From the NCBI GenBank assembly GCA_038740615.1, contig JAVYLQ010000017.1, forward strand, positions 1 to 11,761: 11,761 nucleotides of DNA, written 5' to 3'. Shown one piece after another: positions 566 through 6,142 of this stretch. The translations under genes and the position numbers were made by a program. Origin of the DNA: Candidatus Anstonellales archaeon (GTDB lineage Archaea; Micrarchaeota; Micrarchaeia; Anstonellales; J096). Every line of letters begins with the position of its first letter. The stretch's first letter is position 1. The notes under the pieces are model-generated. The model had not been told where the DNA came from and searched no databases. It saw only the letters and a program-made list of their open reading frames with translations.

Positions 566-1699
566 ATGATAGAGATTGGTGTTGTTGGCAAACCTTCTGT
601 GGGTAAATCCACATTCTTCTCTGCAGCAACGATGATAGATGTAGCTATAGATCCTCGTCCGTTTACCACTATAGAACCTAATACTGGTATAGGGTTTGTT
701 AGAGTTGAAGATATAGGTTTTGAGCTTGGTGTAACCTCCCAACCCAGAAATGGATTTATACTAGGTAAATATAGATTTGTTGGTGTAAAAATGATAGATG
801 TTGCAGGTTTGGTTCCTGGTGCGCACCAGGGACGTGGTCTTGGAAACAGATTTCTAAATGATCTAAATCAGGCAGAGGGATTAATCCATATTATTGATAT
901 GTCCGGATCTACTGATGAGGAAGGTAGGTTTATAGGTGTGGGAGCTAGAGATCCTGAGGATGATATCAAGTTTTTAGAGTATGAACTTGATATGTGGTAT
1001 AGAGATATATTAGAGAGAAACAGAGATAGGATACAGCGAGAGATTAGAGCTGGAAAGGAACCATGGGAAGCTCTTTATAATGTCTTCTCCTCCCTAAGAT
1101 TGAATAGGCAGGATGCTGAAATTGCTATGAAAAATTACGATCTCAATTCTGAAGAACTTCCTAGATTTCTGAGAGAGAGAAGTAAGAAAATAGTTATAGC
1201 TGGTAATAAGATGGATGTGGGGAAAGCTATGGAGAATTATGATAGGCTTAAGAAGAATTATGATATCATACCTGTATCTGCTGAGGCAGAATTAGCATTG
1301 AAAAGAGCTTCAAAACACGGCATTATAAGATATATTTATGGAGAGAAGGATTTTGAAATAATAGGGGAGTTAAGTGATCAGCAAAGGATAGCGTTAGAGA
1401 AAATAAGAAAAGTATTGCCTACGGGGGTTCAACAGGTAATTGAACATCTGGTCTTTGATGTTCTGAACTACATTGCTGTATTTCCAGCAGGAAGTAAATT
1501 AGTAGATAAGCAGGGTAGAGTATTACCTGACTGTTTTCTATTAAAAAGAGGTTCTAATCTAGAAGACTTTGCTTCAGCTATACATACAGATCTAGCTAAA
1601 CATTTGCTATATGGAATAGATGTTAGAACTAAACGCAGATTAGGTAAGGAATATATTTTACAACACCGAGATGGTATAGAGATAGTTGCTGCAAAATGA
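566..1699 (+). CDS. ychF: Archaeal YchF/Ola1-related OBG-family translation-associated GTPase/ATPase with C-terminal TGS domain
   Basis: G1 GKPSVGKST, G2 PFTTIEPN, G3 DVAGLVPGAHQGRGLGNRFL, G4 NKMD, PVSAEAEL, and a TGS-like C-terminus (LPDCFLL..GS...DFA..IHTDL). Confidence 0.93.
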   Translation: MIEIGVVGKPSVGKSTFFSAATMIDVAIDPRPFTTIEPNTGIGFVRVEDIGFELGVTSQPRNGFILGKYRFVGVKMIDVAGLVPGAHQGRGLGNRFLNDLNQAEGLIHIIDMSGSTDEEGRFIGVGARDPEDDIKFLEYELDMWYRDILERNRDRIQREIRAGKEPWEALYNVFSSLRLNRQDAEIAMKNYDLNSEELPRFLRERSKKIVIAGNKMDVGKAMENYDRLKKNYDIIPVSAEAELALKRASKHGIIRYIYGEKDFEIIGELSDQQRIALEKIRKVLPTGVQQVIEHLVFDVLNYIAVFPAGSKLVDKQGRVLPDCFLLKRGSNLEDFASAIHTDLAKHLLYGIDVRTKRRLGKEYILQHRDGIEIVAAK

Positions 1700-2529
1700 A
1701 CTACGAACAGTTATTTCAGAATGAGCTAAACAGAGTATTAATAGATTTATCTAGAGTTGATCTTTATAAATACAGAGCCTATAGACAGCTTAGATTGGAA
1801 GGATTCTACCCAGAATCTGGGGTATCTAATATAGATATTAAAGAATTGGCTATTGGGGAATGTCCAAAGATAAGACCTTTTGATTATACTTTGAAAGGTG
1901 ATATGATTATTAGCTTGTCTCGAGAGGCTTATAGGATATATAATGAATATTGGCTAGGAACAAAAGGGGCTTACAAAAAAGAAGAATTCAGCCCATATGT
2001 TATATTTGATAGATACGAGAGCGATTATATTCTATATAAATTAGGTAAGATTGATCAATTGAGAGAGGATTCTGAGATCTTTACACTGTTTAGAGATGCT
2101 GGTTATATAGTAAAGACTGGTTACAAGTATGGGGGGATATTTAGGATATATGGTTTGAACTATAAGAGAGATAGTAGAGAACATTCAAAGTATATTTTTA
2201 ATATAAATAGAGTGCTGAATTCCATAGAATTGCAGAGAATAGTGAGAGTCACAGAAGGAGTAAATAAGATTCCAATCTTTCCATATAGAAAAACTAATAA
2301 GAGATATAGAGAGCAATTTACAATGAGAAAGAATGATTATTATGGAATATACGTTTTTGGAGAGAATAGTAAAATAGATCTATCTATGGTTGTAGATTCT
2401 GCAATTCTAAACAGACGTAAACCACTCGTTACAATAGTAGATAGGGAAGGAGATATCCTTAGACTAGATATTGAGTTATTGAAATTAAGGGATAAATATT
2501 TTATAGCTATTTATAGAAATAGATCATAG
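1696..2529 (+). CDS. endA: tRNA-splicing (intron) endonuclease, probably a compact epsilon-type (alphaN-alpha-betaC) subunit
   Basis: The catalytic unit has FRDAGYIVKTGYKYGGIFRIY (Y152), REHSKY (H163) and RVTEGVNK (K191). A second YRQLRLEGF-type motif lies in the N-terminus and an L10-like VDREGD at the C-terminus. ATGA 4-nt overlap with ychF. Confidence 0.88.
   Translation: MNYEQLFQNELNRVLIDLSRVDLYKYRAYRQLRLEGFYPESGVSNIDIKELAIGECPKIRPFDYTLKGDMIISLSREAYRIYNEYWLGTKGAYKKEEFSPYVIFDRYESDYILYKLGKIDQLREDSEIFTLFRDAGYIVKTGYKYGGIFRIYGLNYKRDSREHSKYIFNINRVLNSIELQRIVRVTEGVNKIPIFPYRKTNKRYREQFTMRKNDYYGIYVFGENSKIDLSMVVDSAILNRRKPLVTIVDREGDILRLDIELLKLRDKYFIAIYRNRS
2499..2506 (+). promoter_or_regulatory. Candidate TATA box for tRNA-Ser, embedded in the endA 3' end
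   Basis: TTTTATAG at -30 to -23 relative to tRNA G1 (2529), preceded by purine-rich BRE-like AAGGGATAAA. A second TTTATAG lies at 2510-2516. Confidence 0.5.
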
Positions 2530-2612
2530 CCGGGATGGCAGAGCGGTCGATTGCGCTGGACTCGAGATCCAGTGCCCGAAAGGGTTCGGGGGTTCGAATC
2601 CCTCTCCCGGCG
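2529..2612 (+). tRNA. tRNA-Ser (anticodon CGA), intronless, CCA not encoded
   Basis: Acceptor stem GCCGGGA/TCCCGGC with discriminator G2612. D arm GCAGAGCGGTCGATTGC. Anticodon arm CTGGA-CTCGAGA-TCCAG (CGA at 2563-2565). Long variable arm GCCC-GAAA-GGGT. T arm GGGGG-TTCGAAT-CCCTC. Confidence 0.97.
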
Positions 2613-2614
2613 AT

Positions 2615-3130
2615 CTATATAAAATAGTTCTTGTAATTAAGCTTTATCTGTGCATTTGGTCTTATCATGGTAGAGAGATAATTTCCATTCATATAAACCT
2701 TTAGTTGGAGAGACGATTTATCATAAATTGGATTTTTTAAGAAAAGGGGTCTACCATAGGGATTGGGAGAAAACTCAAATACCACATCATTCACTCTAAA
2801 TACGATATCTGTGTAGTAATTACTTTTATTATTTATTTGATTCATATATCCATATCCTAAGTATAAGATTCTTGGATTTTCAAAGGCCAATATAAGTCTT
2901 AATAGTATATCTAATAGCTGTACAGCGCCAAACTCTGCATCAGTATCTATAAGCAACTTCCTATGCTCATGTGGTATAGATTTAATTATAATTCCTTTTA
3001 GGAACTTGTGAGTATTCAAGATCAGTTTTTCCTCATTTTTAGTATTCATAATTCTTCTTGCTAGACTCAATTCGCCATGAAGTTCATCCGCTCCATAGAT
3101 TATCTCAGCAAATCTTTTGGCTTGAATCAT
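2615..3130 (-). CDS. Hypothetical protein
   Basis: Open frame of about 171-174 codons with coding-like composition. Possible starts are ATG 3130, TTG 3139 or ATG 3049. The stop ends 2 nt from the tRNA 3' end. No family recognised. Confidence 0.7.
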   Translation of the reverse strand: MIQAKRFAEIIYGADELHGELSLARRIMNTKNEEKLILNTHKFLKGIIIKSIPHEHRKLLIDTDAEFGAVQLLDILLRLILAFENPRILYLGYGYMNQINNKSNYYTDIVFRVNDVVFEFSPNPYGRPLFLKNPIYDKSSLQLKVYMNGNYLSTMIRPNAQIKLNYKNYFI

Positions 3131-3532
3131 ATCACACAATACAGTGAGACAAGATCATCTAGAGCTATCGCCTCTATTATAGGAGCAAGGAGGATAGATG
3201 AAATAAAACAGAAACTGATAGATGCTAAACTAGAGTCCTATGAAATGTGGAAATTAGATTATATATTAAATAACGATTTAGAAATATACAGATCTATGAT
3301 AAATCCTTATGATGCAAGAGAGGTTAGATCTATGATAAAAAAATATTTAGAACTTATGAAAAATATAGATATGATAGAGAGGGTAGCTAGAAAAATACAT
3401 TTATGGGTGAAACTAGATTCTACTATTAAGAATTTCGAGAATATCGATCAGCAAACAGCAAGAGAGTTGATGAATTATCTATCAGGGGCTGTAGATAGTT
3501 TAAAGAATGTTAATTCCAGATCAGGTCCGTAG
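3077..3532 (+). CDS. Hypothetical, predicted alpha-helical protein; start uncertain
   Basis: 151-codon ORF, long for chance in AT-rich DNA, with a purine-rich + strand from about 3140. It overlaps both flanking minus-strand ORFs. Confidence 0.6.
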   Translation: MKFIRSIDYLSKSFGLNHITQYSETRSSRAIASIIGARRIDEIKQKLIDAKLESYEMWKLDYILNNDLEIYRSMINPYDAREVRSMIKKYLELMKNIDMIERVARKIHLWVKLDSTIKNFENIDQQTARELMNYLSGAVDSLKNVNSRSGP

Positions 3533-4368
3533 AAATCATCAGCTAGATTACCAGTTTTAAGATCGTTAAATGTAATCATATTTTGAGTAGAGTTATATCC
3601 TGGAGAAGGGAGTATCACATGGTATTTTAGATATTCCTTAGAGGTAACTGGATAATAGTAGCTTGCTACGCTATTAATCTCCTCTGTTTCTTCAGTGTTA
3701 AAATAAACTTGAAACAATTCTGGTAAGGTTTTTGAATCATATTTGTTTCTTTTCCTAGCATTTCTATAGAGATGAACATTAGATTTGGGATCCTGTAACA
3801 TAAATTCAAAATCTTTTAATTCTCTGAGGGTTTCTGCTAGTAGTTTTATCTCAACTTCCCATACAGGCGAAATATCTCCATTCAGATAAAATCCTTGTAC
3901 AGTATGAATGAGAATTTTATTTTTATGTAATATAGAGATAGGTATTCTATATAACTTTGATATTTGTATGTCAGAAACTATTCTATATATCACTAGATCC
4001 AGCATGCCCTCCCAATGAGGAAATGCAAAACTTACATTTCTTTTAATTCCAATTCTATTTACATAATTTGGTCTTTTACTCAAATATCTCTGTAATTTGT
4101 TATTGAAATGATATTCTATATCCTGTCTTAACCTATCCATGTTTTTCAATATATTTACATAACCATCAAAATCATAGCCAAGGTATTTTGCCCAGGCTGC
4201 AAGTATTACACTATAATTGTTTCTAAAATACATTTCAATCTGTAATTCACCTCTTAAAAACCTTGTTTTTGAACTTATATCAAATTTCTCCATTTCCTCC
4301 CAGATATTCTCTGGAGTAACTATAAACGGTTCTCTAGGTCTAACTCTAGCATTTATAGAGTTATTCAT
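3475..4368 (-). CDS. Hypothetical protein (weak resemblance to PD-(D/E)xK nuclease motifs)
   Basis: 297-codon ORF with its own TATA-like box (TTTAAAAA on the minus strand, 4399-4392) at -31 to -24. Confidence 0.8.
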   Translation of the reverse strand: MNNSINARVRPREPFIVTPENIWEEMEKFDISSKTRFLRGELQIEMYFRNNYSVILAAWAKYLGYDFDGYVNILKNMDRLRQDIEYHFNNKLQRYLSKRPNYVNRIGIKRNVSFAFPHWEGMLDLVIYRIVSDIQISKLYRIPISILHKNKILIHTVQGFYLNGDISPVWEVEIKLLAETLRELKDFEFMLQDPKSNVHLYRNARKRNKYDSKTLPELFQVYFNTEETEEINSVASYYYPVTSKEYLKYHVILPSPGYNSTQNMITFNDLKTGNLADDFYGPDLELTFFKLSTAPDR

Positions 4369-4411: not shown

Positions 4412-6142
4412 TTAATTTACTTTTTTGCTATCCTTAGACCCTAGGTTTTTAAGTAGTTCTCTACCGATCTCCTCCTCTTTACCCTCTAACTCTTTAAATA
4501 TTTTTTCCAACTGATCTCTGGCCTTATTTATAACAATTCTATAATCTTGCTCTCCTTCTTGTACTTTTTCCAATTCTTCCTCTAATGCTCTAGTAAAACT
4601 TTCACTGAATAGATCAGGAACATAGTTATATAGAACATTCTTAATAACTCTACCTAATTCCGTAACATAGATTTTTCCCTTTTCCTGGTATATGTAACCT
4701 CTGCTAAAAAGAGTCTGAATAATTGCCGCTCTAGTAGCTTTAGTACCTAACTTTAGCTCTTCTAATCTGGACAGTATAGATACTTGATTATATCTAGAAG
4801 GCGGTTTAGTTTTGGATTTTCTAATTCTATAGTTTACTTCATATAAACCCGGATCAATAGATACTTCTTGGATATCTATTTTAGTATAAGGAAAAATTTC
4901 AAGATATCCTTGATCTTTTATAACTATTGATTTTGTTGTAAATATATCTCCTACATCTAATCTATATTCGCGTATTTCTAAAATCATAGGATCGGAGAGA
5001 GTTGCTAAGAAGGTTCTCACTATTATATCATATATCTTAGCCTCATCAGTAGTGATTTCAGCAGATATCCCTGTAGGATATATTGCAGGATGTGCAGGAT
5101 CTGTTTTCTTACCTGAAGTTGGGATAAGTCTATCTTTTGATATAATTTTTTGAATATAGCTTTTATGAATATTCAAGGATTCTAGTATTTTACGTATATT
5201 AAGATCTGGTGGATATCTCTGAGATGAAGTTCTAGGATAACTTATCATCCCTTTCTCATACAGGGACTGGGCTAAAGACAATGTTTTATTAGGAGGAATT
5301 TTATATATATAATAAGCTCTTTCCTGTAGCGTCATTAGATCTGGAGGGTAGATGTATCTTCTCTCTTCATTTATAATAAGTTCAACATTTCCCTCAGTAC
5401 TGAGATTAGAGATATATCTCTCTGCATCATCTTTAGAATCAAATCTCCTATCATTACTAAACTCCACATCACCAACTGTAGCAACCACACTAAAAATGTC
5501 TTTAGGAATAAATCTGTCTATATCATCATCTCTCTGAATTAATAGATTTAAAGAAGGGGCCTGCACTCTACCAATGCTTAATATATCCAAACCAGTATTC
5601 TTCACTGCTCTTAGACTTGCCATCAGAAATCTGGACAGATTAATTCCATAATACCAATCTACAATATGTCTTGCCTCTCCCGCATAAGCATTTGAATAAT
5701 CAAAATCAATCAGATTATTCCAGGATCTATTGAGTTCAGAGTAAGTTATTGATGAGAATTTCATTCTTAAAATATCTCTATCTCTTCCTAGAGCATATCT
5801 AGCGATGTTGTATCCAATTAAACTTCCTTCTATATCAAAATCTGTAGCAACTATCACTCTATTTGCATTCTCTCTTAGCATCTCCGCTAACTCTATGTAT
5901 GGTTTAGTATGCATAAGGTCTCTATCAACTTGATAAGCAGGTTTCCATGATATATCGAAAACAGGGTATCTCCAGTTCCTATCAATCTGATCTAGTTGAT
6001 AAACATGTCCTACTCCAGAAATAACCGCAATATCATCAGATCTAAAATATCCTATGTTCTTGTATCGAATGTATTTTACATTCCTGAATATTGATGCAAT
6101 TTTCCTAGCAACGTTAGGCTTTTCAGCGATTATAATATCCAC
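4412..6142 (-). CDS. topA: Type IA DNA topoisomerase (archaeal TopA/Topo III-like), core only, no C-terminal zinc ribbons
   Basis: TOPRIM motifs IIAEKP, GHV and ATDFDIEG; SIGRVQ; active site GMISYPRT; AHPAIYPT; LGTKATRA. GTG start at 6142. The protein has no Cys. Confidence 0.95.
   Translation of the reverse strand: MDIIIAEKPNVARKIASIFRNVKYIRYKNIGYFRSDDIAVISGVGHVYQLDQIDRNWRYPVFDISWKPAYQVDRDLMHTKPYIELAEMLRENANRVIVATDFDIEGSLIGYNIARYALGRDRDILRMKFSSITYSELNRSWNNLIDFDYSNAYAGEARHIVDWYYGINLSRFLMASLRAVKNTGLDILSIGRVQAPSLNLLIQRDDDIDRFIPKDIFSVVATVGDVEFSNDRRFDSKDDAERYISNLSTEGNVELIINEERRYIYPPDLMTLQERAYYIYKIPPNKTLSLAQSLYEKGMISYPRTSSQRYPPDLNIRKILESLNIHKSYIQKIISKDRLIPTSGKKTDPAHPAIYPTGISAEITTDEAKIYDIIVRTFLATLSDPMILEIREYRLDVGDIFTTKSIVIKDQGYLEIFPYTKIDIQEVSIDPGLYEVNYRIRKSKTKPPSRYNQVSILSRLEELKLGTKATRAAIIQTLFSRGYIYQEKGKIYVTELGRVIKNVLYNYVPDLFSESFTRALEEELEKVQEGEQDYRIVINKARDQLEKIFKELEGKEEEIGRELLKNLGSKDSKKVN

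Follow-up and report, generated by a model that had tools for sequence, protein, structure and literature searches.

Can a chain of 277 residues be a complete tRNA splicing endonuclease of the epsilon2 type? The question is raised by an open reading frame (ORF), here called EndA, in a stretch of 11,761 nucleotides from Candidatus Anstonellales archaeon (GenBank assembly GCA_038740615.1, contig JAVYLQ010000017.1); the whole of that stretch, with a G+C content of about 33%, is referred to as the window. To our knowledge, the epsilon2 endonuclease is known from two proteins of near-equal length, those of ARMAN-1 and ARMAN-2, with 387-390 residues. The ORF is intact as listed (1696..2529, forward strand) and exists as a preliminary description, made from the sequence alone, had given it. 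It very probably encodes a functional, self-sufficient, miniaturised epsilon-type endonuclease, whose activity we infer. The source assembly comprises 541,905 bases in 31 contigs, is estimated to be 83.23% complete and carries EndA on contig C17; the negative results for this genome given below refer to that assembly.

The protein belongs to the EndA family by its C-terminal catalytic endonuclease domain with a Tyr-His-Lys triad. PF01974 matches residues 128-201 with an E-value of 3.4e-15 and 56.3 bits, over a cut-off of 27, within the catalytic unit that the preliminary description had outlined around Y152, H163 and K191. Conservation was read from an alignment, A1, of the query with 34 of 50 retrieved proteins, picked by eye for the loop motif described below; 16 proteins of alpha'2 or alpha4 look were left out. 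The triad is invariant in all 35 rows, as are W86, G88, Y93, K140, K144, S164 and R184, and position 94 is Lys or Arg throughout. ARMAN-2 numbering was carried into A1 through P0034, a protein of 390 residues (match to 4fz2 with E 3.4e-162, 6-390 against 7-387). By this alignment, the ARMAN-2 counterparts are Y160, K161, K228 (for K144), Y236, H251, S252, R275 and K282, and the query keeps all RNA-contact and catalytic residues named in section 12 of PMC12397907 except W384.

Adjacent to the active site, the query carries the loop that characterizes the ARMAN enzymes. Sequence comparison with phmmer against the proteins of the PDB gave the catalytic units of Archaeoglobus fulgidus enzymes as the best local matches (E 9e-9) and ARMAN-2 EndA (4fz2, also 9w2k) as the longest, with query residues 77-223 on chain residues 144-316. 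In that alignment the query segment YNEYWLGTKGAYKK lies opposite ARMAN-2 YENFWLGQYGTYKV, so that Y93 and K94 correspond to Y160 and K161. The Lys-bearing loop singled out earlier, YWLGTKGAYKK, is thus the Tyr-Lys loop of the epsilon2 type. In ARMAN-2, Y160 and K161 are described as binding the bulge backbone and as required for cleavage of both bulge-helix-bulge (BHB) and bulge-helix-loop (BHL) substrates (PMC12397907).

The three-unit order of the epsilon2 enzymes, alphaN, alpha and betaC, is also present, with alphaN reduced to a two-helix remnant. The borders given for ARMAN-2 in PMC3488258 are alphaN 2-97, linker 1 98-125, alpha 126-288, linker 2 289-300 and betaC 301-387. Transferred through A1, they place alphaN of the query at residues 1-39 (37-42 residues in the short forms, 68-125 in the other A1 rows), linker 1 at 40-61 (19-22 and 20-29), alpha at 62-197 (136-138, against 144-168 in the 24 full-length longer forms), linker 2 at 198-206 (8-10 and 7-17) and betaC at 207-277 (68-74, against 73-102 in the other rows without P0016). 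The exceptions for the alpha segment among the other rows are P0023, with 136 residues, and the truncated P0016, with 135. The shrinkage is therefore concentrated in alphaN.

Structure prediction is in agreement with this assignment. An AlphaFold2 model built with A1 has a mean pLDDT of 94.4 and a pTM of 0.89. Its top Foldseek hits are the ARMAN-2 chains 9w2k_B and 4fz2_A (E 3.2e-18 and 9.3e-18; TMq 0.77 and 0.76), and the next hits after the ARMAN-2 entries are alpha'2 enzymes with E-values near 1e-7. VIA-align 2 superposes all 277 residues on 4fz2_A (Z 23.6, root-mean-square deviation 3.0 Å), with model residues 1-277 on 41-387, and model residues 1-275 on 9w2k_B residues 41-385 (Z 23.5); 5x89 follows with Z 13.5, and alpha'2 enzymes with Z of about 11.4 over 199 residues. 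Since the model starts at ARMAN-2 residue 41, residues 1-40 of ARMAN-2 have no counterpart in it. The preliminary description's reading of a much reduced epsilon-type enzyme is borne out by both A1 and the 4fz2 superposition. Its figure of around 390 residues for the ARMAN enzyme agrees with the 390 tabulated in PMC6379350 and the 387 in the text of PMC3239211.

What remains of alphaN differs in part from what had been expected. The same description had taken residues 1-40 as the motif of an N-terminal subdomain, which holds for helix 3-11, in the alignment the counterpart of the N-subdomain's 'EALYL' helix. It does not hold for helix 23-34 (YRAYRQLRLEG), which aligns with ARMAN-2 alpha4. This position, together with a second, weak PF01974 match (E 0.31) that places residues 25-43 on positions 4-22 of the profile, identifies the helix as the first of a C-terminal subdomain. 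Ahead of residue 48 the model shows no strand, only one bridge residue (38), and the alphaN beta-sheet is absent, so the complete alphaN with its N-subdomain sheet that ARMAN-2 has at 2-97 is missing. The strand at 48-50 in linker 1 may be the counterpart of ARMAN-2 beta7.

The C-terminal end was correctly seen as half of a structural unit with an acidic L10 loop. Residues 207-277 align with betaC and include D249-R250-E251; D249 is present in all 34 A1 rows that include the L10 region, and a beta-subunit NCBIfam model matches weakly at residues 209-255 (E 0.021). ARMAN-2 alpha4 and alpha10 sandwich the betaC sheet (PMC3488258), and helix 23-34 would pack on betaC in the same way. On the model, the structural pseudo-unit appears to be essentially a C-terminal subdomain, with alphaN down to two helices.

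All three runs of a homodimer prediction, proposed earlier as a check, gave a score of 0.89, and the highest score among three controls was 0.00. Contact agreement was at least 100% and partner pLDDT at least 91. In calibration, the mark used for this tool was reached by 20 of 30 solved same-chain pairs and by one of 23 solved single chains, counts that are only rough here as our own alignment was supplied. The trans contacts of lowest error join residues 249-251, the Asp-Arg-Glu of L10, with 140-144, and residue 181 with 181; loop residue 89 contacts 251 in trans. The predicted dimer is thus L10-mediated, as in the epsilon2 type, and the same arrangement of L10 and pocket is described for ARMAN-1 and ARMAN-2 in PMC3239211.

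The one departure from ARMAN-2 among the named RNA-contact and catalytic residues lies in the base clamp. In ARMAN-2, R275 serves as one pincer arm on the first bulge base, and W384 of the same protomer stacks on that base jointly with it (PMC12397907). The query keeps the arginine as R184. In the W384 column, Arg is found in all nine short rows (R274 in the query) and Trp in all 25 longer rows, including P0023 with its 311 residues. The ends of the VIA alignments agree with this register, pairing 277 with 387 in 4fz2 and 275 with 385 in 9w2k. For alpha4 and alpha'2 enzymes, two arginines are described at the clamp position (PMC12397907), a pairing that the query would share. The change from Trp to Arg and the loss of alphaN both fall on the branch leading to the short clade.

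These features suggest how the enzyme may work. Two identical chains would pair, each with one active site (Y152, H163 and K191, helped by K144 and S164) and one structural pseudo-unit, in which the N-terminal helix 23-34 would be packed on the C-terminal betaC sheet. The L10 loop (D249-E251) would insert into a basic groove on the catalytic unit of the other chain, and this docking would space the two active sites to match the two bulges of a BHB RNA. The ARMAN-type loop (Y93/K94) would grip the bulge backbone beside the scissile phosphate, and R184 and R274 of the partner chain would hold the flipped-out bulge base between them, so that an Arg-Arg clamp takes the place of the Arg-Trp clamp of ARMAN-2. 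The likely substrates in the assembly would be five intron-bearing pre-tRNAs, for Tyr, Cys, Trp, Leu-CAA and one Met-CAT.

The tRNA genes bear directly on the substrate range. ARAGORN found 32 in the assembly and the Rfam tRNA model 33, the additional one being a tRNA-Phe. Introns occur in only those five of the 33; each of them interrupts the anticodon loop at 37/38, and no intron at a non-canonical position was detected in the 33. A BHB motif follows a 3-4-3 pattern, and each of its bulges is cut after the second base. This rule put the Cys cut after position 37, with an outer helix of 5 bp, and a strict scan found a perfect motif for tRNA-Cys only. In a relaxed scan, which accepted three of the four central pairs and in which the arms were also folded, pre-tRNA-Tyr, -Trp and -Leu showed the 3-4-3 motif at 37/38 with one mismatch in the 4-bp helix. 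Pre-tRNA-Met(CAT) (contig C25:2226-2319) had no frame with at least three of four central pairs and at least three outer pairs. Its arm folds at minimum energy into a 3-bp helix between 3x4 and 2x1 internal loops, and it is a candidate relaxed substrate of EndA.

The preliminary description had suggested that the genome may hold non-canonical-intron, split or permuted tRNAs, and this expectation is not supported: no split, permuted or hidden tRNA gene was found in the assembly. A T-arm pattern scan gave 34 hits, 33 in known tRNA genes and one chance-like. A scan for islands of at least 60% G+C returned 271, among which 29 of the 32 larger islands outside tRNA and rRNA genes lie within open frames of at least 130 residues; compared with Rfam, the remaining three are a 5S ribosomal RNA, a signal recognition particle RNA and one without a match. 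Hidden tRNA halves were rejected on these two scans. Given the negative scans, the tRNAs absent from the inventory (Asp, His, several Arg and others) more likely lie in the missing 17% of the genome. The same-genus genome G251 has plain tRNA-Asp and tRNA-Arg genes.

The tRNA-Phe(GAA) gene (contig C11:81-152) lacks its 5' acceptor strand; ARAGORN reported it at a lowered threshold, and it covers Rfam model positions 8-63. A genome-wide search of the assembly for the missing 7-nt acceptor strand and for leader complementarity gave nothing convincing. The best duplex, with z of about -4, lies in what we take, by eye, to be coding sequence. The gene is 80 nt from a contig end and is contiguous in seven of seven relatives, being identical from U8 to the 3' end in the same-genus genome G176, and a split or non-canonical tRNA-Phe was rejected on these grounds. 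A contig-end assembly break is more likely than a split tRNA, and a genomic rearrangement may also account for it. Separately, ARAGORN reported a tRNA-Pro with the anticodon AGG (contig C21:1846-1919). This anticodon is unusual for tRNA-Pro in Archaea.

This inventory brings up the most serious alternative, the same enzyme with a narrowed specificity, a view that we consider doubtful yet worth entertaining. Here the mini form, deprived of the Trp arm of the clamp and of most of alphaN, would cut only near-canonical BHB motifs at 37/38, like the alpha4 and alpha'2 enzymes, with the loop kept for general catalysis and not for relaxed substrates. It is favoured by the position of all five introns and by the Arg-Arg clamp ascribed to those two types, and ARMAN-2 loop mutants are reported to lose strict-BHB activity as well (PMC12397907). 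Relatives with short or mid-length forms point the same way: G251 (short form), G176 and G080 (362-residue open frame) have 41, 35 and 43 Rfam tRNA matches, all full-length, and G031, of the same family (383-residue open frame, 93% complete), has only 23, several of them partial (model positions 6-65, 8-63) or low-scoring. This hints at many disrupted tRNA genes in G031, unlike the short-form genomes. The pattern fits short-form lineages having ordinary tRNA genes, on four genomes, too few for a rule. Against such narrowing, only the Cys motif is perfect; three introns are mismatched, and that of Met sits in internal loops around a 3-bp helix. With imperfect motifs in four of five introns, some substrate tolerance seems to be needed, and Y93 is invariant and position 94 always Lys or Arg.

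An arrangement in which EndA is only the catalytic partner of a heteromer, and the product of a gene missing from the assembly serves as structural subunit in place of the lost alphaN, is improbable. The incompleteness of the assembly and the cutting of alphaN to about 39 residues speak for it. However, both PF01974 matches of the assembly lie within the EndA ORF and PF02778 has none there, so that the separate structural-subunit gene named in the preliminary description as grounds for refutation was not found. The chain already has betaC and L10, was predicted to pair with itself at 0.89 against 0.00, and superposes with all 277 residues on a homodimeric enzyme. The 96-residue beta subunit of the Pyrobaculum aerophilum (alpha-beta)2 enzyme (2ZYZ; PMC6379350) suggests that a structural unit without an N-subdomain may be feasible; judged by its size, it is a likely precedent. 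Like the pseudo-unit of the query, that subunit is probably little more than a C-terminal subdomain; its chain 2zyz_A, with 93 residues, aligns to the model in 93 columns (TMt 0.54). In P. aerophilum, however, the structural unit is a separate gene product, whereas here its parts flank the catalytic unit within one chain, and the crenarchaeal specificity loop of that enzyme is unrelated.

Less probable still is a chain of the ordinary alpha'2 tandem kind, or one unit extended by unrelated sequence, whose likeness to ARMAN-2 is superficial. Structures of alpha'2 enzymes do match, at Z of about 11 over about 199 residues, and the NCBIfam EndA models cover the catalytic part only. Yet an alpha'2 chain has a full structural unit followed by a catalytic unit that ends soon after its Lys, and in the query just 61 residues precede the catalytic unit while the 86 after K191 align with betaC. 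The ARMAN-2 structures score 10 Z units above the rest, with Foldseek E-values 11 orders of magnitude lower, the loop motif is common to ARMAN-2 residue by residue, and the epsilon rows separate from the alpha'2 and alpha4 outgroups with 99% support. The alpha'2 enzyme of A. fulgidus (2GJW, 1RLV) is similarly a homodimer of a fused chain, as predicted here, and matches the catalytic part at the E-value given above; unlike the query, it has a full structural unit before the catalytic one, no betaC after the catalytic Lys, no ARMAN-type loop and a much weaker structural match (Z 11.4 over 199 residues). A decaying, functionless remnant, which the short length, long tree branches and very small genome might suggest, is just as remote: the frame is intact, all nine short homologues keep length class and start, the catalytic and RNA-contact residues are all invariant, and five tRNA introns need removal with no other endonuclease gene found in the assembly.

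The short enzyme is not confined to this genome. A word-index protein search found six relatives and a full HMMER scan 45 at E-values up to 0.001, with 12 at up to 1e-10 and two at up to 1e-30; it was the latter scan that brought in the longer forms. The nearest database proteins are 96-97% identical, have 277 residues and are named hypothetical protein of 'Candidatus Anstonellales archaeon' by NCBI; a further relative, 47% identical, is named 'Candidatus Micrarchaeota archaeon'. The lengths in A1 form a series of 269-283 residues (nine proteins including the query), 311-368 and 371-420, besides P0016 (235 residues), which is without betaC and apparently truncated. The nine short forms have the same start at identities down to 26-29%. 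A quick maximum-likelihood tree of 51 rows (35 epsilon and 16 alpha'2/alpha4-like outgroups; 346 columns; SH-aLRT support only) unites the epsilon rows in one clade (99) and the nine short forms in another (97), with P0016 plus P0023 as their sister (93). A compact variant of a known enzyme type is what this short clade represents.

Within the phylum, EndA as query matched 223 of 251 sampled genomes at E-values up to 1e-5. Among the 150 matches listed, open frames are mostly of 383-420 residues, and all but the query's (293 residues, 277 from the ATG) have at least 335; those of the same family range from 335 to 383, with one 335-residue frame at a contig end. G251, outside the phylum sample, has a 283-residue form that is identical to P0008 and 29% identical to the query. 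No description of so short an epsilon form was found in titles and the starts of abstracts, a search outside which lay the supplementary alignments of the ARMAN-2 papers, and a term search of the 2025 ARMAN-2 paper PMC12397907 returned no mention of one. The short form most likely arose by reduction of a longer epsilon enzyme, mainly through loss of the alphaN beta-sheet.

Several points weigh against an autonomous, reduced epsilon enzyme. The NCBIfam endA model TIGR00324 scores 46.7 bits, under its cut-off of 59.6, and four whole-protein EndA models of NCBIfam score far under theirs, so by sequence the protein is an outlier. The Arg-Trp clamp of the epsilon2 type is incomplete, with R184 present and W384 replaced by R274. 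All support is computational, consisting of homology, fold, conserved residues, the predicted dimer and the tRNA inventory; from it we infer activity, clamp geometry, direction of evolution and substrate range. Fold and dimer are themselves predictions, and the ARMAN-2 structures were probably known to the predictors; as the ARMAN-2 dimer has been solved, the high dimer score may reflect likeness only. With 17% of the genome unseen, a second subunit gene could still exist. The tree shows a polytomy at the base of the epsilon clade, which bears on whether the short form is reduced or primitive and makes reduction from a longer ancestor parsimonious rather than demonstrated. Finally, G176, of the same genus and 88% complete, gave no EndA match in its assembly even at an E-value of 10; its gene is probably in the unassembled part.

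The coordinates of the enzyme's parts and of the adjoining tRNA gene are collected in the table.

Table. Parts of the compact EndA and the neighbouring tRNA gene, with positions in the window
Feature	Position	Strand	Basis
Whole ORF, very probable compact epsilon-type tRNA splicing endonuclease (EndA)	1696..2529, including stop codon	+	ORF list; PF01974; best structural matches 4fz2/9w2k
Vestigial alphaN, residues 1-39, helices 3-11 and 23-34	1696..1812	+	AlphaFold2 secondary structure; A1; weak PF01974 match
Linker 1, residues 40-61, short strand 48-50	1813..1878	+	A1; AlphaFold2 secondary structure; borders from PMC3488258
Catalytic alpha unit, residues 62-197	1879..2286	+	PF01974; alignment to 4fz2
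ARMAN-specific loop core, residues 85-95 (YWLGTKGAYKK), Y93/K94 = ARMAN-2 Y160/K161	1948..1980	+	phmmer alignment to 4fz2
Catalytic Tyr Y152 (ARMAN-2 Y236)	2149..2151	+	Invariant 35/35; alignment
Catalytic His H163 and S164 (ARMAN-2 H251 and S252)	2182..2187	+	Invariant 35/35
R184, putative first arm of base-sandwiching pincer (ARMAN-2 R275)	2245..2247	+	Invariant 35/35
Catalytic Lys K191 (ARMAN-2 K282)	2266..2268	+	Invariant 35/35
Linker 2, residues 198-206	2287..2313	+	A1; borders from ARMAN-2
betaC unit, residues 207-277	2314..2526	+	A1; weak NCBIfam beta-subunit match; VIA alignment to ARMAN-2 residue 387
Acidic L10 loop, D249-R250-E251-G252-D253	2440..2454	+	DNA gat agg gaa gga gat
R274 at the ARMAN-2 W384 position, putative second pincer arm	2515..2517	+	A1 column; VIA alignment ends
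tRNA-Ser(CGA) gene, neighbour outside the enzyme	2529..2612	+	ARAGORN; Rfam tRNA 56.1 bits; sequence

The gene is tightly packed between its neighbours. Its ATG overlaps the TGA of an upstream gene for an Obg-like/YGR210-like GTPase (566..1699) in an ATGA at 1696-1699, which suggests translational coupling. Downstream, the tRNA-Ser(CGA) gene begins with the final nucleotide of the EndA stop codon. The hexamer TTTATA occurs twice ahead of this tRNA gene, at 2500-2505 (29-24 nt upstream) and at 2510-2515 (19-14 nt upstream), both times inside the terminal codons of EndA. A TATA-type promoter of the tRNA may lie within the end of the EndA reading frame, or the tRNA may be excised from a co-transcript; the hexamers may also be due to chance in an A+T-rich genome. 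In G251 (contig C45, locus 1273-2331), tRNA genes likewise lie 3' of the 283-residue EndA gene on the same strand, with tRNA-Asn 28 nt downstream, then tRNA-Asp, and tRNA-Arg(GCG) further on. In the window, two ORFs on the reverse strand (2615-3139, 174 residues; 3475-4368, 297 residues), neither matching a Pfam family at an E-value up to 0.1, sit between the tRNA-Ser gene and a topoisomerase gene (4412-6142, Toprim and Topoisom_bac).

Compared with the epsilon2 EndA of ARMAN-2 (Candidatus Micrarchaeum acidiphilum; 4FZ2, 9W2K; PMC3488258, PMC12397907), the query shares the unit order, Tyr-Lys loop, triad, the pairs R184/R275, K144/K228 and S164/S252, the acidic L10 and, by prediction, the homodimer. 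It differs in length (277 against 387-390 residues), at a structural-alignment identity of about 20%, and lacks ARMAN-2 residues 1-40 and most of 52-78, which form the alphaN beta-sheet. Shortening also affects the linkers, the alpha-unit N-subdomain, the His loop and betaC, and Arg takes the place of W384. The hosts differ as well: no non-canonical intron was found in this assembly, whereas 56% of ARMAN-2 tRNA genes are given as interrupted in PMC3488258.

The short clade indicates how far the epsilon2 architecture shrinks with catalytic and RNA-contact residues kept and the clamp Trp changed to Arg. The N-subdomain sheet of the structural pseudo-unit is apparently dispensable, and the clamp Trp appears replaceable by Arg. 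As a naturally minimal version, the short EndA lends itself to structural and mechanistic studies of how the ARMAN-type loop acts. The proposed co-evolution of endonuclease type and disrupted tRNA genes can also be tested on it, since it combines a broad-specificity loop with introns found at ordinary positions only. A bolder reading, which we put forward tentatively and think rather less likely than its opposite, is that the short clade contains the smallest self-sufficient splicing-endonuclease protomer and that the ARMAN-type loop belongs to the catalytic core instead of being an add-on for odd introns. This reading builds on the strict retention of the loop alongside few anticodon-loop introns and on the return of the clamp from Arg-Trp to Arg-Arg. 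If true, it would mean that enzyme architecture is uncoupled from tRNA-gene disruption, contrary to the co-evolution model for ARMAN-2 and Crenarchaeota.

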